DNA from: Spizellomyces punctatus DAOM BR117
Lineage: Eukaryota
NCBI GenBank assembly: GCA_000182565.2
Contig: KQ257459.1
Length of the DNA: 64,000 bases
Strand: one strand, 5' to 3'
Both the position numbers and the translations under genes were made by a program. Below are positions 1-40,585 of this stretch, in pieces; the first letter of the stretch is position 1; each line of letters begins with the position of its first letter. The notes below the pieces were generated by a model. That model was not told where the DNA came from. It saw nothing but the letters and a program-made list of their open reading frames with translations, and searched no databases.

Positions 1-2163
1 TGTTCTCAGCACAGACTGTACTTGAGCGTAAGTCAGTTGATGATCCAAATACCTACCTTCCAAGTCGAATGTTACTTCTAACGGTGATATCAGTTTGGTG
101 AGTGGTAATAATTAGGTAAAAGTAAATGCCATGGCATGCGTTACCGTTCGAGAAGCAACCGTCAGCGCATATGTTGAGCATTTGGCCCTTCTGCCGTACT
201 TTGGGTTCGTCTTCGTTAGTGTGATCGAGGTTGACGTCAATATTTCAATAGTAGCGCATTCTACCTGTTGTTACTCGATCTGCAGCCATATCTAACATTA
301 TATCTCCACAATGGCTACAGTTTAAATCGACGTCATGTACCGTTGCGCTGCATTTTCGATGAAACCATCATTCACTGTGGGCACCGCTCTTGTTTATTGT
401 ACGTACAAACCTTGTCGTGGTATGCAAGCAGGTGCCGTCCTCCGCCCTTTTGACTACTCGATGCACTCGATTATTGATTGCAACATACCTTAAAAGCCCG
501 ATGGGTAGTTCATGCAGACTAGGTCGAGTTCAAGACTACAACAATAGCTCACATAGTATTCCGATTTCTGCATTTGGGGTTAAGGCATCCATACGTCTGA
601 CTGTATCTGGATAATCATTGAAGATGTTTGATGTTGTATCGGATCACGTCAAGCAACTTGTCGGACATACATGGTATGAAAGGGTAGGTGCAAGCATGAT
701 ACAATGCCACGAATAGCGACAAGGTTTTGCTTTGTGACTTTGCAGAGTTCTCCGCGGCTGTGATTGAAGACCTCCCGTAAGTTGTAAAAGTGCAGCCTGT
801 ATGGCAGCGTCAATGTAGCGAAACTGAAGATGAGAGCATAGTCCAGATGCATCTTACTCTGGAATCGCTGGCAAGTAGGCCAGACGGATGGCGGCTCGTA
901 CGTGCTCTGGAAAGAGGGTGGATTGAGCGCGTGTCGCTTTTTCAATGTGCCAAAAGCAGGCTGGAGCTGTCATCAATGCCTTTGCGTCCGAACCATAGAA
1001 GCAAAGCTAATCGCCTACCACTGGCAAAATCTTCTTTGAGGTTCTCAGCCAAACCCCGTATTAATTCATTTCCAATATTCTCTGTGCGGGTAGGTGGAGA
1101 ACATTATAAGCTGAATCTTCGTTCAGCAGGTAAAAAGCCATGTCATTACCGTCGTAGTCCAACAACACTGCAGGATCAATGTGGAGGATTACGCAGTATC
1201 TCTCCTTTGTCGATGTTCGCTAGAGATAGTAGTTCAGCAGTGGTCATTTTGTCAACAGCTGAAAAACTAGTATTACCTGCGCCTTGACGCGCTGTGCGTC
1301 AAAGATTGCCTTCATAATATCTTTGATGTGATAGAGCTGGATATCTAAGAAAGCGTTGTGGTCAAGATCGGGAAGGACGAGTTGGGAATTTTTGCGAAGG
1401 GCAGTTTGTATTCTTACATTCAATTATTCGTTCTCTTGTTGACCGATTAGCTGAATCGGGCATGTATTCCTCCGCATACCCGTAATGCCGAGACATTGTA
1501 TTGTCAGATATCTTGACAGGTTCGGTCTCTGGAGCTGACACAGATTCCAGATCATCCGGGCCACTGATAAAGTTTTCGTCCTCAGGACCTCGAATCGGTG
1601 GACTGAATAGCGACGTTGCCAATTGTAATGAAGGACTCTTAGCAGGGCACGGAGTAGAAGATCTGCTGTCACTGACGCGAGATCCTGTGGACGATACAGG
1701 TGTACTACAGGAAGAGTTGAGGAAAACAGCCGGCCGAAATACTGGTGTGGGTGGTGCCTGGAGCTGAGAAGAGGAAGACCTGTAGCTATTATGTTCGGTA
1801 CATTGCTGCTGGGGTAGTGTCGGCTGCCTTGAAGATCCAGAACCTGGTTGTACTGGAAGATTTGGATTCTGAGCGTCCAAAGGAGGTTGTCCAACCATAA
1901 CCTCTTCTGGTGACTGCCTATACGACGCTGGAATAGAATGCTTGGCTGTTATTTTCCTGAAATTGGCCTTTCAGGTAGTTAGGTGAGCTAGCGTCGCCAA
2001 AATCGCCAAAATTCCAGGAGCAGCATGCCTTTTTGGAGAATGCAAAGCGGTCCTTCAACGAATTCCTGATGCGCTGCTCATCAACGGTAGGAAACGCATT
2101 GGATATACGGTCCGCATTAGCAGGTGCATCTATTGTCAATGCCGGATCTTCGTCTTTTGCCAT
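1..2163 (-). pseudogene. Degenerate multi-exon gene, possibly a KDZ (Dileera/Zisupton-like) transposase remnant; runs off the window edge
   Basis: ATG at 2163 (MAKDEDPAL...), then a low-complexity S/P-rich ORF (1362-1898). Broken frames near 150-600 read YGCLNPKC and LNCSHCGDIMLDMAADRVTTG, resembling the CxxCG...DG(V)xxG motif of Zisupton/HMGXB3-type KDZ proteins. In-frame TGA stops and apparent frameshifts. Confidence 0.35.
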
Positions 2164-2191
2164 GGTCAGGATGAACAAGGAGCGTGGGAGT

Positions 2192-2271
2192 AAAGTGATC
2201 TTGCCTTAGTGTATTGGCAATAACAACATAATACACCAGGGAATGAACCGGCGACAACCGGTTCGGAAAAG
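2192..2271 (-). ncRNA. Fanzor omegaRNA-like RNA (SpuFz1-type scaffold 2271-2207 plus ~15-nt guide 2206-2192)
   Basis: Minus strand reads CTTTTCC-GAACCGG TTGTCG CCGGTTC-ATTCCC-TGGTGTATT ATGTTGTTATTGCC AATACACTA then AGGCAAGATCACTTT. Two stems are directly visible (7 bp perfect; 9 bp with one G-U). It closely matches the SpuFz1 scaffold as I recall it (GUUUUCCGAGCCGGUUGUCGCGCGGUUCAAUCCCUGGUG...CACUA). Confidence 0.8.
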
Positions 2272-2332
2272 CCAAGTTACTCCCCCTTACTAGTAGCCAA
2301 CTACGACTAGGCCCAATTACACATGCAATACA

Positions 2333-2595
2333 TTACGGTTGTTCTAACCGGGTAACTAAGCCCACCACCACGAGAGAAATCCTACTAGGCCTTTGATTCC
2401 GAAATTCTTGAGTCGGAGGATGTTCAGATACTAGTAAAATCAGAATAATTAGACTGGGAATACACCTGGGAAAATACAAAAACAATGCATACCTGCGATC
2501 ATTGCAGCATAGTAGTAGCAGTGTTTGCAAGGGGTTATGTTGTTGTCGTTGTCGGGCGGACGAGGCCCTCGGCACCACCACATCGGCGTTCTCAT
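2333..2595 (-). CDS. Putative spliced 66-aa micro-ORF upstream of the omegaRNA
   Basis: ATG 2595; intron 2492-2431 (GTATGC...CTAAT...TAG); stop 2335-2333. Product MRTPMWWCRGPRPPDNDNNITPCKHCYYYAAMIAVSEHPPTQEFRNQRPSRISLVVVGLVTRLEQP. Confidence 0.3.
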
Positions 2596-2674
2596 GATTG
2601 ACTTGAGAGTTGCTTGAGGATGCTTCGAGAGTCGAGGGAAAAGAAACAAGATGGGGGGAGAGCAAATGCCCCCC

Positions 2675-2765
2675 TTTTATAGACCTTCAGCATGCGCTCC
2701 ACCGCAGTTTGGAGAAAGAAAAAACATTGGCATGCCACACCGCAGTTTGGAGAACATTAGCATGC
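2675..2765 (-). promoter_or_regulatory. Putative Pol II promoter of the omegaRNA cassette
   Basis: TATAAAA at 2681-2675 (minus), with a duplicated upstream motif CACCGCAGTTTGGAGAA (~2700 and ~2738) and AACATTRGCATGC twice. Confidence 0.45.
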
Positions 2766-4511
2766 ACCTCACCGCTGTCAGCGATGGGGGTGCTGATTAT
2801 GTCACTAAATGTGGTTAATTCGCACTGATCTTGCCTTATGTAACGCATGCGCAACTCGGGTCATATTACCTCTTTTGTCTAAATGAACAATTATTGCCAA
2901 TATTGGTTATATTGCTTTAACTTTACGGGCGGGGAAATTCACTATATAACTTGTTGCAAGCTCAACCTCTGAGCCATGCTCCGACCCCTCCGGCACTTGA
3001 AATTTAACAGCGTCCATGGTTGCCGACCTCAGCGCCGCTACTTGCAACATAGGTCGTTCCAGCTTGGTAGGTTGCTGCCATCGTCGCAGCCGTTGGGGTG
3101 CAGCAGGCGTTGGGGATCATCCTAGTTTTCATTTTGTAGCTGTAGCCGAATTTGCAGTTAGAATGGTTTGCAACGGCATTTGTTGCTCTAAATCCGTCTA
3201 CGCTCACCACCGCTGCGGCATGTGGAGGGTGACAACATTCAACCCCACAACCCTTAGCACATGGCCGATACAGACACAACGTTTAAATTCATTGTCTTTA
3301 GCGCAATGCACGCTTTGAAACACTCTTAAAATTTCCAGATCATATGCTAAAATGCGACCCAATTTTGCTGTCACCGCTTTACAGCAGTTTTTGCAAGAAA
3401 TATGCACAGTGAAGATCCACAGAATAATTTCAGATTGATATGCGGAGGCAAATGTACAGAAATGATCCGATGAATGCCTCTAAGAGATATGAATCAAAAG
3501 CTCTCTACGTTAGCATGCATGGTATGTCGACAAGGCAGTCAACAATCGTAAAAGAAAAGGCGAAATACAGTGGTATGTCTTCAATCGGCACATTTCCAGA
3601 TTATGGAAATCATGGACAACAATTACGCCAGTTGCCGTTTGTAGATGTGCCATGCCATTGCATGTAAATACCGTCATCACCGTCAACATGCCCCCAACCA
3701 TACACCTAACAGGTCCTCGTAGGGGTAGCTGCTACAAGTACTTTTTATACACGTGATTTCAAACTTCGCCTGACTATTGTATTTCTTGGGCTTTTACTTA
3801 TTAATGATTTTGCGTACACAACGCTATGGATCCAAAGACATGCCGCAGTCCGCACGATCGAAATCTGTCAGCAGAATATTAGTTGGAGATATCCAAAGCC
3901 ATTTTCTCAGATCTGCGTTTGATCTGCATTTCTCGTACAATGGGGAGTTGGTAACGTTCGTTGGGATGAACGTATTGACCGCCATGGTCTGCCGCATGCC
4001 GCATACATTTTCGACCTTGCGAACTTACCATGTGGCAAGGTTTGGAGACATCGCGTTAACTTGGATTTCGGCCGCAAGCGGCACTGACAAATTCAGGTGC
4101 AGAGATCTCCTCGTCCTGTTCGCAGTGCATTCTTCTTTGGTAGAGTAAGTGATCAATGGTTGGATATGTCTGAACGGTTTGTTCATTGGAAAGGTGTTCA
4201 CTGTCCGATTGTGACAACTCAACATCATCGATGCTGTGGATCTGCGACTGTAATGACTCCTTCTGCACCGATTATTGGATAATACTCTGCAAAAATGCCG
4301 ATTTGAAAGGTCGGGGATCTGTTGGGCTTTTCTTGACATGCCGCATTCTGGAGGCGGGTGCTACTACCCTGAAGCAGAACGCAAATGACAGCAAGTTTTG
4401 CAATTCTGCTCACGGTGAATATAAAAGAACGCCGGGCGAGTCACCCTACTTGAATAAATCATCCTCCAACTGCAACGTCTACCACTCATCTTAAAGCCAA
4501 TAAGCTATCAA

Positions 4512-4916
4512 ATGACCGCTATGCACTTCATCAGCGACACGATCGCCTTCGCTCTCCTCACTCTATTCAGTCTCTGTGCCGTGAACGGACAGTGTATTGG
4601 GGACGGCAAACAATGCGACGTTGCAAAATACTGCAAATACACCTTCAACAATTTTAATTGTCAAATGCCGATTCCTGGAAAAGCCGCATCATTTAAGGAA
4701 TGCGTCTTAGATGCCGGCTGCCCTTCGGGCTCAAAGTGTATCAACCAACTTTGTTGCGATGTGTCAGCATTGAACGGCGATAGCTCTGCTTGTCCGACGG
4801 GCCCCGAACTCGCCAGGTGCTGTTTTGAGCGCAACCTTGGAGCTGACGTGGGGCAACCTGGTAGTTTTATCCTCGAGAAGCCCACAGCGCCCTGTGGATG
4901 CCCGTCCCTCCAATGA
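4512..4916 (+). CDS. Small secreted cysteine-rich protein (134 aa)
   Basis: Single-exon ORF with a hydrophobic signal peptide (…AFALLTLFSLCAVNG), about 14 Cys in the mature part including CPSGSKCINQLCC, and upstream TATAAAA at ~4420. Confidence 0.75.
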   Translation: MTAMHFISDTIAFALLTLFSLCAVNGQCIGDGKQCDVAKYCKYTFNNFNCQMPIPGKAASFKECVLDAGCPSGSKCINQLCCDVSALNGDSSACPTGPELARCCFERNLGADVGQPGSFILEKPTAPCGCPSLQ

Positions 4917-5199
4917 TAACAAGAAACCACATCGCCTTGTCGGCCATTTTCCGGTTCAATGCTCAAAATAGACTTTAGCTTGCTAGTATACCTTCGTCAC
5001 CCGTCATCGTTTTTGCAGTTAATGTCTGTGATAGAATCAAAAACTCAAGTTTAATGTAACTGTCGTTGAAAATGTCATGTGTATTACGATATCAGTCATT
5101 GCATTCCAACCCTTTCAAACCAACGGTCAGGAGCACTTCAGCCTGCCTGCTTACAGGAAAGCGCAAGTGAGCTCCGGTCTGCTGATTTCCGCACAAGAC

Positions 5200-8100
5200 A
5201 TGACAATTTCGGAAGGCCTGGACTCTAAATCGCCAACAGGTTCATCGCCCTCGAAATCAGCACCGAACAAGGTCGCCTTGGGGGATCTTCCCGCCTTTCT
5301 GACAGCTCGTACTGCGCCGGATGCACCTATACCAGCACCGCCAAGACGAGACTCTATTACCTCCCTTCCAAAGCCCGTTGTGGACTATTCCCAATTCATG
5401 GAGCAATTGAAAGCGAATCCACATGCACGAGTTGTCTCCTATGAGCATACAGCGTCGCTAGACACGTTAGGACCACCAGGACAGCTAGTGGAGGGCGGTA
5501 TGGTTGGACCTGGTAATGCGTCAGAACGATCTATGGCGTTGGCGAATACTGAAAATGATACCATTGGAGGAACACGATCGGTACGCTTTGCTTCGTCGGG
5601 AGACCCTAAAAGAACTGTTGCGGCAACTTTAGAGGAGTCTTTATCAGGGACGTTGGCACACGAAGTACAGATCTCCCACCCAGAACCACAATCAATTCTT
5701 AAAAGCGCCACGGTACCATCTCCAGTGGACTTACATGCTCTCACAAATTCATACTCATACAGTGACAGCGGGAGCGAGGGTCTGTCAGACTACGACGATG
5801 ACACCGAGGAGGGTTCTGTTTCAGACGAATATGGCAGTGAGCCTGAGTCAGATCGGGAAGGTCATTCATTGCAAGAGCGCACCAGCGGTGGGATTGCGAC
5901 ACGAGGAGGACGGTCGCAAGGTCGAGTTTCTAGACACAGGGGTGAAACGGTTGAATCAGAAGATGAGAGCGTCCTAATATCAGGAGGTGAATCGGCCGAT
6001 GATCAGTCGCCCGCTCAGTTGTCAGAACCGGTACTTCAAGAGAACGAATCAAAAGCACAACTAGAAGATGTTACAGTAGACGACTATGAGGACATGGACG
6101 GGCTCCTGGTGACGTTGGATCGCTTTATTCGAAAGAATCGATACTCGCGTAGCATGAATTCAGTGGCTTTGTCCCCCTCGTTGGCGGCGTTGCAAAGCAT
6201 CAAAACCAAAGGCGCGCCTTCATGGGCTGTTGAGGCGAACGAAAGAGAAGTTTCCAAAATCCAACCATTGAAGGGGCTGCAGAGAATCAAGAGCATCAAA
6301 GAGGAGACGATGTCAGAACAGGTCACTCTCCCTGTGACGGATGACAAGAGGAATATGATAATGGCGAAGCTCACCGAAGCGAATGTGAAAAAGATTACAA
6401 CTCGCATTTATATCGAGGACGCTCGATCCTTTAAAACGCTGCTCCTGACATCCCTGATGTCTGCCGATCAAATTGTTCATGATGTGGTTACAAAGTTTCA
6501 TCTGGAAAAGTCACCCAACTGGACGTTGTTTGAACTTTGTAATGACCTTGGCATTGAACGCCCGCTGCGAGATTGGGAAATCGTTACGGACGTTATATCT
6601 GCTTGGGATGCTGGGACATCAATCAACGCAATCGTCATGAAAAAGTACGGGTACAGGGACACTGTTTCTCCTAAAGCCGTAGCGGGAAAATATCCACGAG
6701 TTCAAGGGTGGATGCATATGGAAGTGAAGCCTGGCAAATGGCAACGCAAGTTCTTTGTACTACGCGAAGCCAGTATCTACTATTACAAAGATGCCAACCA
6801 GTCGGGTTCGGAATCCCTTTTTTGTGGACTTGGCAATTACGATGTATATACTCTATCGCAACGCCGAAAGAAGACGCCAACACAATTCTGTTTCGCCCTT
6901 CGATCAACTAACAGCATATCTTACTTTGAAAACAAAAAGGATTATGTCCGATATTTGTGTGTCGAAAAGCAGGAGCGACTGTATGATTGGGTTCTAGCCA
7001 TCCGATTGGCTAGGAGTGAGAAGACATTTGCTGACTTCCCGGAACTTTTCGAGGATTACGATGAAATTTCTGCCAAAGCGTGGCGGCGGAGACAGGGCGA
7101 TTCTCTAGGGAAAAGTGCACGGGAGAGGATAGATCCGAAGCAAGTAGAGGGTGCGGAAGGTGGCTCACAAGGGGACTTGGGCCAGGATCACACGCGGCTT
7201 GCTCGACGTGCAGCATCCCCTGAGCCACTACTACAATTTGGCACCGTGAACAATAATATTAGTCACCCGGAAGTTCGCAGGTCAGCCGAACCAGATGCTG
7301 GTCGGTCCTCAACCCGCCGCAAATCCCACCGCCGCAGAGCATCGTCGGAGAACGACGATGATGAACCTTTACTTGTTCGACAGATGCGTCAAAAGACCGC
7401 ATTAATAGCTGAGGATGGGGAGCGTGACGGTGGGCTCGTCTCACGACGGGCGACACGACCTAGTCGAAAGGTGACTGACAGGGAAGATGTTACCTCTCAG
7501 TCGGAGAGAGAAGTTGATGTGGCACGACGAAAAACTAGATCAACGCGACGAGTGCCAGATGACGTAAGTGACGCAGCCCGTTAGTCGGCATATGCTGCAT
7601 AATCTAATTTTCACATAGTCGCCCTCTGAGCGCGAGTCAGATGTTGGCCTCATGAGACGACCGACCACGACTCGATCAAGCAACTACCGTAGTACAGACG
7701 ATGTAGTTGCAAAGAGACGTTCACCCCCATCGCCGCCGAAACCTCTCCTGTCTTTCGCGGCAGACGACAAGGAACGTGATAAGGATCGGGATACAGATCG
7801 AGAAAGGGAGCGAGAACTTGAATGGAAACGGGAAAAGGTGCGTGATCGCGAACACAAGCGAGAGAGATCACGAAGAGGAGACAGACCGGGTGGAAGTGTC
7901 CGAGAGCGTAACCGCGAACGTGACAAGGACAGAGAAAAGGACAGGGAATTGGACCGAAATAAAGATGAACGAAACCCTGACCGAGATCACCGTGATCGCA
8001 ACGATGAAGGTAACCGATCGTCTGGACACCGGTCCAGATATGGGAGTGGAACGGCCATCGGAGGTGGATCCACCAGTACGTTGGTACAACAGATATCCGA

Positions 8101-26917: not shown

Positions 26918-27481
26918 NNNNNNNNNNNNNNNNNNNNNNNNNNNNNNNNNNNNNNNNNNNNNNNNNNNNNNNNNNNNNNNNNNNNNNNNNNNNNNNNNNN
27001 NNNNNNNNNNNNNNNNNNNNNNNNNNNNNNNNNNNNNNNNNNNNNNNNNNNNNNNNNNNNNNNNNNNNNNNNNNNNNNNNNNNNNNNNNNNNNNNNNNNN
27101 NNNNNNNNNNNNNNNNNNNNNNNNNNNNNNNNNNNNNNNNNNNNNNNNNNNNNNNNNNNNNNNNNNNNNNNNNNNNNNNNNNNNNNNNNNNNNNNNNNNN
27201 NNNNNNNNNNNNNNNNNNNNNNNNNNNNNNNNNNNNNNNNNNNNNNNNNNNNNNNNNNNNNNNNNNNNNNNNNNNNNNNNNNNNNNNNNNNNNNNNNNNN
27301 NNNNNNNNNNNNNNNNNNNNNNNNNNNNNNNNNNNNNNNNNNNNNNNNNNNNNNNNNNNNNNNNNNNNNNNNNNNNNNNNNNNNNNNNNNNNNNNNNNNN
27401 NNNNNNNNNNNNNNNNNNNNNNNNNNNNNNNNNNNNNNNNNNNNNNNNNNNNNNNNNNNNNNNNNNNNNNNNNNNNNNNNN
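26918..27481. other. Assembly gap (N run), likely a collapsed tandem array
   Basis: Run of Ns starting inside a tandem repeat. Confidence 0.95.
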
Positions 27482-32932: not shown

Positions 32933-33177
32933 ATTATCATACTTGAAGCAATGATAATAGGACAGAGTTCAAGGGACTGGTCAAAGGGCAGGTTTTGGGA
33001 ACGTTTTAAAAGACTCTTTACATGTATTACATCCATCAATAGTACAAATGCAACTGATATATTGGGTCGGATTATCCCAAAGTCCCGCATCAATTATTTA
33101 CACTGATACAATATACATGAGTGGTGAACTTCTTCCAAAGTCCCACTTCAATTTATTACACTCTGCAGTATACATGA

Positions 33178-34207
33178 AGCAGTAGTAGTAGTAGTAGTAG
33201 TTTATTCGGGCGCGACAGCGAAGTAGTAGTAGTAGTAGTAGAAGTGATGCCAGAGGCGAGACGCAAAAGCGAGTGATGCAAAGCAAAAGTGATGCCAGAG
33301 GCGAGACGCAAAAGCGAGTGATGCAAAGCAAAAGTAATGCCAGAGGCGAGACGCAAAAGCGAGTGATGCAAAGCAAAAGTAATGCCAGAGGCGAGACGCA
33401 AAAGCGAGTGATGCAAAGCAAAAGTAATGCCAGAGGCGAGACGCACAGCGGAAGATGCCAGAGGCGAGACGCACAGCGGGAGATGCCAGAGGCGAGACGC
33501 AAAAGCGAGTGATGCAAAGCAAAAGTAATGCCAGAGGCGAGACGCAAAAGCGAGTGATGCAAAGCAAAAGTAATGCCAGAGGCGAGACGCAAAAGCGAGT
33601 GATGCAAAGCAAAAGTAATGCCAGAGGCGAGACGCAAAAGCGAGTGGGAGATGCCAGAGGCGAGACGCAACAGCGAGAGACGCAACAGCGGGAGATGCCA
33701 GAGGCGAGACGCAACAGCGAGAGACGCAACAGCGGGAGATGCCAGAGGCGAGACGCAAAAGCGAGAGACGCACAGCGGGAGATGCCAGAGGCGAGACGCA
33801 CAGCGAGAAATGCCAGAGGCGAGACGCAACAGCGGGAGATGCCAGAGGCGAGACGCAAAAGCGAGAGACGGAAAAGACGACGGCGGGTGCGCGATCTTCT
33901 TCGCTGTTGCCTCTCCTTTTGGCGAAGAAGAGGCAACAGCGAAAGCTGGAATGAACGCGATAAAGGATTGGGGGGAAACGCGAGAGGGATGCGCTCTTTT
34001 ATAGAGGAGGATTTTCTGGTCTGACGTGTCATTGTGTCTGCTCTCCACCAATAGGAACGTGGCACAGTACTGATATTAGGTAATTGGCAAATCCACCCAC
34101 TCTCCACCAATAGGAACGTGGCACAGTACAAGGTAATTGTACAACCCATCCACTTAGGTAATTGTACAATCCACCCACTCTCCACCAATAGGAACGTGGC
34201 ACAGCAC
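33178..34207 (-). repeat. Repeat family X copy C: upstream units, TATA, hairpin, 45-bp and shorter tandem arrays, AATAAA+(CTA)n
   Basis: TATAAAA 34003-33997; 15-bp perfect stem 33900-33914/33929-33943; 45-bp unit GTRATGCCAGAGGCGAGACGCAAAAGCGAGTGATGCAAAGCAAAA; AATAAA 33206-33201. Confidence 0.9.
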
Positions 34208-38934: not shown

Positions 38935-40428
38935 ATGGCCCCCCAGGATCTATCCTCCCTACCGGCAGAGTTACTGTTGGCCGTGACAGAGTTCCTGGAT
39001 GCGGAAACCTACATCCGTCTGTCTCAAACCTGTAGTCTATTCCGGTACCTCCTCTTTAATTCTCCCCGAAGATGGGCATTCGGAGCGAATCCAGACGTTC
39101 TGCTGACACATTCAGGGCTTGACGTCACGTTTACGCAGAACCACGGTCCTGATGCATCGGACCTGCTGTACGATTCGGTGATTACCGTTTTGGAAGAGCG
39201 GAATGGAACAGTGAGGTACAATAGGGTGTATCGCGGCTTGCGATGCCGTGGGGACCGGTCTGTGGTCGGTGGGATGCCGCTGTGTGTCTTGCCAATTGGG
39301 TGGAAGCAACGTACGAATCCCTCCATGGCATACTACGAAATCAAAGTAACAAGTACACACGATGGGACATGGCGCATTGGGTTAGCGAGAGAGGGCTACT
39401 CGTCTGTTCACCCTGTTGGAATCTTGCCGTATAGTGTTGGATACTGCAGTGAAGACGGCTCTGTAGCTCTCGGTCATCGGGACGGGGAACGCTTTCAATT
39501 TGCGCCACCATGGAAGAGTGGAGATATTGTTGGGTGTGGGTATCTCGTTGATCAGGGCGACACACTCGCAACGGTATTTTTCACTCTGAATGGCTTCTGG
39601 GTAGGTGATGCACCGTATGTGATCACTAGCACGCCATATGACTATCGGGAGATATGGTTCCCAGTCGTGACGTCCTCAGTGGGCTGCCAAGTGCAAATAA
39701 ACCTTGGACAAGAGCCCTTTGCGTATAAGCTTGCGAACAGTATGTCGGGCGCCACACATTTGGCTACTAAGCGCTTGTGGCCGAGGCCAAGATGCGTGGA
39801 TGCCACTTCAGCTACGTCGGACCTTGTCATGGCACCTAATCCCCTTCCTCACCCCTCCGACCCATACATTTCAGCCGTCCTCCCATCACCCTACACACTC
39901 CACTTCCCAGATATTGGCTCCACAACAGCCCGCTCCTGCTTCTCAACAAAACCCATCCCGCCACAGTTTTACTACGAACTCGTCGTACTGGATCCTGGAC
40001 CCAACTTTAACAGTTTTCTCTCCTTTGGCCTGGCCACAAAACCTTACTCTTCCTTTCATCATATTGGATGGGATGCTCACAGTATCGGCTACCACACCGA
40101 TGACGGACGGGTCTACCACGGAGCGTTCGCAAAAGGCATCAAATACGATACAGATCTGGAACTTGCTGGCGTGCAGCGTGGTACGGTGCTGGGATGTGGG
40201 TATGATGCCGGGGTGGGGTCTGTGTATTTTACGAGGGATGGAAGGTTCCTGGGAACGGCTGGTGAGGGGATTTGGGGGGAGTTATATGTGGCTGTCGCAG
40301 CGATTAGAGCATGGAAGGTGGAAGTTAATTTTGGGAAACGGGCGTTTGTTTATCATCCGAAGGAGGAGGATGTGGGTTTGGGACAGTCATTTCCCCTCGT
40401 TCACCTTCAACACACGCCTCGAATATAA
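38935..40428 (+). CDS. F-box protein with two SPRY domains
   Basis: F-box LSSLPAELLLAVTEFLD…LSQTCSLFR. SPRY motifs YYEIKV…IGLA…SVGY…DG…GDIVGCG…VFFTLNG and YYELVV…SIGYHTDDG…LGCGYD…YFTRDG…VNFG. Confidence 0.88.
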   Translation: MAPQDLSSLPAELLLAVTEFLDAETYIRLSQTCSLFRYLLFNSPRRWAFGANPDVLLTHSGLDVTFTQNHGPDASDLLYDSVITVLEERNGTVRYNRVYRGLRCRGDRSVVGGMPLCVLPIGWKQRTNPSMAYYEIKVTSTHDGTWRIGLAREGYSSVHPVGILPYSVGYCSEDGSVALGHRDGERFQFAPPWKSGDIVGCGYLVDQGDTLATVFFTLNGFWVGDAPYVITSTPYDYREIWFPVVTSSVGCQVQINLGQEPFAYKLANSMSGATHLATKRLWPRPRCVDATSATSDLVMAPNPLPHPSDPYISAVLPSPYTLHFPDIGSTTARSCFSTKPIPPQFYYELVVLDPGPNFNSFLSFGLATKPYSSFHHIGWDAHSIGYHTDDGRVYHGAFAKGIKYDTDLELAGVQRGTVLGCGYDAGVGSVYFTRDGRFLGTAGEGIWGELYVAVAAIRAWKVEVNFGKRAFVYHPKEEDVGLGQSFPLVHLQHTPRI

Positions 40429-40585
40429 AGGTCCAGAGCACCCCGTACGTATGAATATCCAACCCAACCAGATTACTTTAATTTTATAAGATGCCTCATA
40501 TATAGACTGTTTACTTAAGAATGTCCAAGCAATGCTAATGATGCAGCCATATGTATAAAACGAAACCATTATAATTTCGGTTCTA

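Follow-up and report, generated by a model that had tools for sequence, protein, structure and literature searches.

The window analysed here – the whole 64,000-nucleotide stretch of contig KQ257459.1 from Spizellomyces punctatus DAOM BR117 (GenBank assembly GCA_000182565.2) – contains a ghost Spu-1 element, a member of a multi-copy group that lacks a gene for the RNA-guided nuclease Fanzor. The element is the 617 bp at 2209-2825 on the minus strand, so that its left (5′) end has the higher coordinates, and it is bounded by two perfect copies of a 13-bp direct repeat. The left copy begins within CATA, the target-adjacent motif (TAM) of the nuclease SpuFz1, and carries the same 11 nt as the start of the guide of the element's own omegaRNA, which gives the locus the appearance of targeting itself. 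On balance, the repeat is probably a locus-specific duplication of the insertion target, left by a non-canonical integration of this ghost copy, with the self-target as its by-product. The integration route appears not to have used, or not to have kept, the left inverted repeat (IR).

Ghost Spu-1 elements were described at 134 loci, alongside 42 loci with Fanzor, as elements without a Fanzor open reading frame (ORF) and with a core of ~550 nt (Saito et al. 2023, PMC10432273). The same paper gives their layout as 30-nt IRs with CA upstream of the 5′ repeat, a 75-nt omegaRNA scaffold and a variable guide of 14-15 nt, and reports that ghost omegaRNAs are active with SpuFz1. In the canonical arrangement, CA is followed on the left by TA (at once the duplication and the second half of the TAM) and the left IR, and on the right the IR is followed by TA, which belongs to the scaffold, and then the guide (PMC10432273, PMC3627910, PMC13565253). 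The element class is already known, and this locus may already be among the 134 catalogued; the left junction is its unusual part.

The repeat, the TAM and the guide are arranged as follows, with all coordinates given as positions in the window.

2837-2840, minus strand: CATA, read directly from the sequence, the published SpuFz1 TAM (PMC10432273)
2826-2838, minus strand: left copy of the 13-bp direct repeat (TA + AGGCAAGATCA), from the repeat search, with DNA depth at flank level
2822-2836, minus strand: partial protospacer, identical to the guide at positions 1-11 by direct reading
2196-2208, minus strand: right copy of the 13-bp direct repeat, preceded by AC rather than CA and without a CATA TAM
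2192-2206, minus strand: guide AGGCAAGAUCACUUU, flanking host DNA unique to the locus, placed by the scaffold end (A75 at 2207) and the 14-15-nt length of guides

The 13-mer, TGATCTTGCCTTA on the plus strand, has exactly two occurrences in the window (2196-2208 and 2826-2838), which are 100% identical, and these two remain the only matches in the 64,000 bases of both strands when up to one mismatch is allowed. None of 100 dinucleotide shuffles contained two matches, and the uniform expectation for an exact CA plus 13-mer within 1 kb is 9e-7, so the repeat together with its TAM is not a chance occurrence. On the minus strand the left side reads CATA-AGGCAAGATCA-GTGC (2840-2822) and the right side ...ACAC-TA-AGGCAAGATCA-CTTT (2212-2192), where the left repeat copy opens with the TA of CATA. 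The 15 nt beyond the right end (2206-2192, minus strand) are AGGCAAGATCACTTT, and this guide agrees with the left protospacer at 12 of 15 positions: positions 1-11 are contiguous, positions 12, 14 and 15 differ, and the T at position 13 agrees by coincidence. The initial annotation had placed the repeat at these coordinates, with these letters and with 11 perfect TAM-proximal matches followed by a mismatch, and had named CATA as the SpuFz1 TAM; all of this was borne out, the last by the published TAM (PMC10432273). Because the right junction reads ACTA and not CATA, only an empty site or the left copy would be recognisable as a target. Contigs of run X1, which may derive from the same strain as the assembly, bridge both junctions (record 1 over 1912-2252 and record 8 over 2737-3100) with no other letters, and the structure is therefore not an assembly artefact.

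The repeat copies and the DNA between them differ sharply in abundance. DNA depth was taken from genomic chromatin immunoprecipitation (ChIP) reads (run X19), summed over both directions per bin; ChIP enrichment may inflate the ratios between bins, and no copy number was derived from them. The flanks (16 bins, 1700-2169 and 2828-3100) have a mean depth of ~3.5, whereas depth is 35-891 per bin over 2217-2639 (10-254 times the flanks) and 17-130 over 2640-2780 (5-37 times). It is highest in the exon 2 region (231-891 per bin), where the repeated DNA is most abundant and best conserved, and falls from 130 to 5.5 (~1.6 times the flanks) in the adjacent bin 2781-2827, giving a range of 1.6-254 times flank depth over the bins of the element. 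At many sites, letters unlike those of the window form the majority (e.g. G to A at 2245, in 498 of 757 reads), which shows that the reads derive from many non-identical copies. The bins with the two repeat copies, by contrast, have depths of 0.4 (2170-2216) and 4.0 (2828-2874), at or below flank level. Since these bins are single-copy and the DNA between them is high-copy, the guide and its matching target come from the target at this locus and not from the element. The initial annotation had proposed two readings of the repeat, RNA-guided autoregulation and a non-canonical integration with a 13-bp duplication, and this contrast supports the second better than the first.

Homology to other copies, seen in the loose ends of run X1 contigs, spans at least 578 nt (2209-2786). 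No other copy was found within the window (blastn, word size 7), in metagenome contigs scanned twice for exact patterns from the stem-loop 1 region of the omegaRNA, or in viral contigs scanned once. The only match among prokaryotic contigs, to a 23-nt omegaRNA pattern at 6280-6345 of contig L001, lies in a coding region of a bacterial metagenome-assembled genome with a CGCCGGTT(T/G)(A/T)T tandem repeat and is unrelated.

The 3′ end of the element transcript is, by its sequence and predicted fold, a SpuFz1-type omegaRNA that continues for 15 nt into flanking DNA.

2207-2281, minus strand: omegaRNA scaffold, its length set at 75 nt after the papers, from the named nucleotides and the fold
2271 onward, minus strand: structured part of the scaffold in the predicted fold, with stem-loop 1 at 2263-2246, the linker AUUCCC at 2244-2239 and stem 2 at 2238-2207

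The fit was scored on the SpuFz1 scaffold nucleotides that are named by number in the text of PMC10432273 (Saito et al. 2023), rather than on a whole scaffold sequence. With position 1 at 2271 (minus strand), U5, C6, C7, U16, G17, U18, C19 and G20 all fit (8/8), and a piecewise register, anchored at the 3′ end and with one nucleotide fewer after position 20, accommodates 15 of 18, adding the linker A29-C34 (AUUCCC), U35, G37, A72 (at 2210) and A75 (at 2207). Placing A75 at 2207 puts the start of the guide at 2206. The 90 nt at 2281-2192 are predicted to fold into two stems and a linker, with a z-score of -2.73 and one of 200 shuffles equally good; the fold of a longer, 229-nt stretch is not distinctive (z -1.51). 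Stem 2 includes the right-end IR and the terminal TA, as in published ghost elements. The division proposed in the initial annotation, with a SpuFz1-type scaffold reaching to 2207 and a guide at 2206-2192, agrees with both the named nucleotides and the two-stem fold. A search of Rfam over 1-6000 returned no family for this region, and a lone long non-coding RNA match elsewhere (E = 0.52) is attributed to chance. A 14-nt direct repeat (13/14 identical) links 2230-2243 in stem 2 (TTCCCTGGTGTATT on the minus strand) with 2459-2472 in the intron of the element (TTCCCAGGTGTATT).

As a transcription unit, the ghost element is driven by a TATA box and spliced; its parts are as follows.

2700-2716 and 2738-2754, minus strand: two perfect 17-nt repeats, each with a GCATGC-like motif next to it, upstream of the TATA box
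2674-2681, minus strand: TATA box TATAAAAG belonging to the transcription unit of the element itself, from the sequence and the start of RNA in bin 2593-2639
2493-2639, minus strand: exon 1, from RNA depth and the 2430/2493 joint, with its 5′ limit at bin resolution
2431-2492, minus strand: intron of 62 nt, GT..AG; the joint is CT..AC on the plus strand, with 92 reads from 14 starts (run X18) and one contig (run X4)
2207-2430, minus strand: exon 2, from DNA and RNA depth, its 3′ end being the omegaRNA scaffold

RNA depth in run X18 reaches 36,689 over 2217-2639, in one direction only, and is 0.87 in bin 2640-2686 and 0 over the neighbouring gene. Coverage begins ~35-40 nt downstream of TATAAAAG, which identifies the unit as TATA-driven, and the joint, CT..AC on the plus strand and hence GT..AG on the minus strand, sets the sense of the RNA as minus. 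The published text available to us describes ghost loci by their 75-nt omegaRNA and does not mention a spliced, TATA-driven precursor (PMC10432273). The two 17-nt CACCGCAGTTTGGAGAA repeats, which lie upstream of the TATA box, are candidates for enhancer or promoter elements in the ghost family. A third, degenerate copy of CACCGCAGTTTGGAGAA lies at about 2770-2786, and GCATGC adjoins all three; units resembling CACCGCAGTTTGGAGAA are also present in other copies of the element (contig loose ends).

No Fanzor ORF is present between the element ends. The longest ORF is 110 amino acids (aa), and neither it nor a 48-aa ORF starting with ATG matches an entry in PDB, which includes SpuFz1. One-base deletions occur in about a third of RNA reads at both 2368 (9107/28663) and 2410 (6151/19291), which argues against a conserved reading frame. 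A Pfam scan, which covered 17 of the 19 listed ORFs (33098-34051 and 39704-40489 being left out) and could miss intron-split genes, found a TnpB/Fanzor domain in none of these 17 distinct ORFs of at least 250 aa and in none of three shorter ORFs near the element.

The lack of a Fanzor ORF, the high copy number, the transcription and the SpuFz1-type 3′ end together assign the element to ghost Spu-1. The 617 bp between the repeat copies compare with the published core of ~550 nt; the scaffold at the 3′ end is followed by ~15 nt of variable flank; many genomic copies are indicated by the depth ratios and mixed letters; and CA, as part of CATA, stands on the 5′ side. Published ghost elements differ in having IRs at both ends, with CA adjoining the 30-nt left IR (PMC10432273). 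Here the right IR is present and a left IR is undetected, and CA is set apart from the element by TA and the 11 duplicated nt that copy the guide target. The copy is therefore an atypical ghost member. Nor does it conform to canonical SPu-1, which has terminal inverted repeats (TIRs) of 33 bp together with a 2-bp TA duplication, because the TA on both sides lies within the 13-bp duplication and a left TIR is not detected.

The left junction, which the initial annotation had correctly seen to depart from the published layout of CA, TA duplication and IR, consists of CA-TA, then 11 nt of guide target, then sequence that does not partner the right IR.

2787-2825, minus strand: left junction segment, filler or else a left end that is diverged or truncated, from alignments, a DNA depth of 5.5 and no detectable inverted repeat

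Since other copies are homologous up to ~2786, any unique filler or diverged left end is confined to at most 39 nt (2787-2825). Global alignment of the expected partner of the right IR to 2780-2825 gave no left IR, 564 of 2000 shuffles scoring as well, and neither did gapped alignment over 2770-2836, for which equally good scores came from 511/3000 shuffles and 208/1772 pieces of the window. Weak, scattered similarities to the right IR – TAGTG..ACATAAT at 2807-2791 and TAACCACAT at 2819-2811 – are no better than shuffles. The origin of a filler was sought in recurring k-mers, and none of 9 or more nt from 2808-2825 recurs in 1-6000. Among ungapped 30-mers in 2600-3100, the one most like the right-end IR, 16/30 at 2905-2876, was not accepted as the genuine left end, since CATA does not precede it, the flanks are dissimilar and its DNA depth is single-copy. 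It holds TATTGGCAATAA, 53 bp outside the left repeat copy, which forms a perfect 12-nt inverted match between 2891-2902 and the core of the right-end IR (2212-2223). The 12-mer sits in a CCAAT/ATTGG palindrome (2892-2911), has single-copy depth and is without CATA or flank similarity; chance, a CCAAT-type motif common to both places or the remnant of an earlier left end might each account for it.

If the repeat is a target duplication, the original empty site would have been CATA|AGGCAAGATCACTTT, the first 13 bases of which (TA + 11) now stand on both sides of the element, and an orthologous empty site should read CATAAGGCAAGATCACTTT. The initial annotation held that nothing of the kind had been described for Fanzor, which proves too strong. 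Most of the 5′-truncated Fanzor1 elements CRe-1/2/3 of Chlamydomonas reinhardtii have duplications of ~7-19 bp, the 5′ copy lying directly downstream of a target tetranucleotide and sometimes followed by extra sequence (Bao & Jurka 2013, PMC3627910). The present locus resembles them in the length of its repeat (13 bp), its intact 3′ end and non-consensus 5′ end, a 5′ copy that adjoins the target tetranucleotide, and possible extra sequence after that copy. The repeat includes the TA of CATA, is directly preceded by CA, and extends 11 bp beyond the full TAM. It falls outside that family, because CRe-1/2/3 are related to Helitron2, with hairpins and asymmetric TIRs at their ends, have TTTT as their target and were attributed to one-ended rolling-circle transposition, whereas the target here is CATA and Spu-1 is a TIR element with TA duplications (PMC3627910). 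In its duplication the locus works alike with these elements while not belonging with them.

As the most likely mechanism, we tentatively suggest that the locus is a preserved repair scar of Fanzor in its native host, formed by omegaRNA-guided cutting of the empty site, one-sided synthesis and end joining. Fanzor, guided by the locus's own omegaRNA, would cut an empty copy of the site, and the right-hand end would then invade the filled copy (e.g. on the sister chromatid) in its right flank. Copying would proceed leftward across the guide region, then the TA and the element, giving a perfect right junction, and would stop at or near the left end, where the nascent strand would be end-joined without homology, and with some filler, to the left-hand break end. 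This break end would carry CATA and up to 16-17 nt of target, and would have to lose 5-6 nt to leave CATA and 11 nt. SpuFz1 cleaves the non-target strand after positions 16-17 and the target strand after positions 20-21 (PMC10432273), and the 11 nt duplicated after the TAM are shorter than the first of these distances.

The proposed events share the logic of restorative homing by TnpB and IscB (IS200/IS605, IS607), in which the guide is the flank beside the right end, the TAM lies to the left of the empty site, and cleavage of the empty site is followed by copying from the filled one (PMC13565253, PMC10432273). They differ in that bacterial repair proceeds by homologous recombination and leaves no duplication, whereas one-sided copying with end joining would leave a scar. 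The available text of the review lists homing for TnpB and IscB only, with no experiment for any Fanzor (PMC13565253). The Chlamydomonas report predates the discovery of RNA-guided cleavage by Fanzor (PMC3627910); among the papers listed from the open-access literature and bioRxiv we found no link of such duplications to Fanzor cleavage, and only Bao & Jurka (2013) join 'Fanzor' with 'one-ended transposition'.

Several points weigh against the duplication reading or the part given to Fanzor within it. Only a single locus is considered, and nothing at it singles out Fanzor over a transposase as the maker of the break. The absence of a left IR was judged only against this copy's own right end, and, at 617 bp compared with ~610 in published elements, this copy is close to full length, so simple 5′ truncation is not evident; the left IR would therefore have to have been replaced by filler of similar length or to have diverged beyond recognition. 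An excision joint or empty allele, which would skip ~630 nt, was not seen in the four runs used, X1, X4, X18 and X19, all of which may come from the reference strain. The piecewise scaffold register was picked after the sequence had been seen, and the 8-position motif alone occurs at two of 127,950 anchors in the window, a chance rate, so that its weight lies in its position beside the flank and in the other evidence. ChIP depth, finally, gives no clean copy number.

A transposase could have made the duplication on its own, although we regard this as rather unlikely. A transposase that moves Spu-1 in trans, ordinarily with a TA duplication, would nick one strand of the target at its usual TA and the second strand 11 nt off, or act in a one-ended or half-site reaction, and leave 13 bp duplicated without any part for Fanzor. 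The duplication does begin exactly at the TA of CATA, the canonical target; the TIRs and putative TA duplications of SPu-1 are typical of cut-and-paste elements, and one-ended transposition was the explanation that Bao & Jurka gave for the Chlamydomonas cases (PMC3627910). No transposase is known for Spu-1, however, according to the text available (PMC10432273), and DDE transposases are reported to make duplications of 1 to 10 bp, with TA for IS630/Mariner (PMC13565253), a range that excludes 13 bp. A reaction without the left TIR would not use a normal substrate, and the 11 nt are also within the cut distance of Fanzor.

A later local rearrangement is a still less probable source of the structure. 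Here a canonical insertion, with CATA and a left IR, would have been followed by a deletion, gene conversion or microhomology-mediated template switch that eliminated the IR and placed a copy of 11 nt from the right flank on the left side. The unique sequence of at most 39 nt, just where the IR is expected, would suit such a history, and TAGTG..ACATAAT and TAACCACAT could be its debris, but these similarities do not exceed those of shuffled sequence, and two coincident events would be needed, falling exactly at the TAM and at the right junction.

TldR proteins are nuclease-dead repressors derived from TnpB, and the initial annotation had proposed, by analogy with them, that the element's omegaRNA brings Fanzor to the CATA + 11-nt site, where binding without cutting tunes transcription. 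The site does have the correct TAM and 11 contiguous TAM-proximal matches, the element is a strongly expressed transcription unit on the same strand, and SpuFz1 is minimally active with 10-nt guides and levels off at about 13 nt, so that weak or non-productive engagement is conceivable; as with TldR, an omegaRNA-type guide is aimed at a site near a promoter. We nevertheless consider autoregulation very improbable: the protein partner is an active nuclease, unlike TldR, the 11-nt match exceeds the 10-nt minimum for cleavage, and the target duplication fully explains the site as a by-product. The TAM does lie 156 nt from the TATA box, close to the ~150 bp first estimated, and this distance follows from the length of the element; with one locus and a promoter distance fixed in this way, the analogy finds no support. 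Since the guide and target are locus-specific and not part of the conserved element, they would not constitute family-wide control. As 10-nt guides already show minimal activity, the left copy may be a weak cleavage substrate instead of the pure binding site that had been supposed.

The window is eukaryotic, fungus-like DNA of 47% G+C that encodes PPR, RhoGEF, malic-enzyme and F-box/SPRY proteins; it is interrupted at 26918-27481 by 564 N, either masked or withheld. The nearest host gene begins beside the right end.

2161-2175, minus strand: start of the neighbouring host gene, with its ATG at 2163-2161 and the end of a cDNA-like contig (X4 record 9) at 2175

The end of this contig lies ~32 nt from the right end of the element and is not proof of a transcription start; its position places the insertion in the likely core promoter of the host gene. 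X4 record 9 skips 61 nt (1966-2026), a stretch whose ends, if shifted by 2, would suit a GC..AG intron. The gene has no Pfam match, and it is silent in the RNA run in which the element RNA is, in a multi-copy sense, highly abundant (X18).

For the biology of the family, the finding corrects the idea of a regulatory self-target and adds that ghost elements are spliced and TATA-driven. The biological role of RNA-guided cutting by Fanzor is stated as unknown (PMC10432273), and homing is described as shown only for the bacterial TnpB and IscB (PMC13565253). Imperfect homing would be expected to leave a duplication of this kind, one that is anchored at the TAM, falls short of the cut distance and adjoins a damaged left end. 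If the scar is a one-off, the locus is merely an atypical copy of a known element. If the repair-scar reading is true, the left copy would persist as a weak target and could set off the loss or re-homing of the element; and if such scars also recur at other ghost or Fanzor loci and explain the Chlamydomonas duplications, they would be the first genomic evidence of Fanzor-driven transposon homing in eukaryotes.

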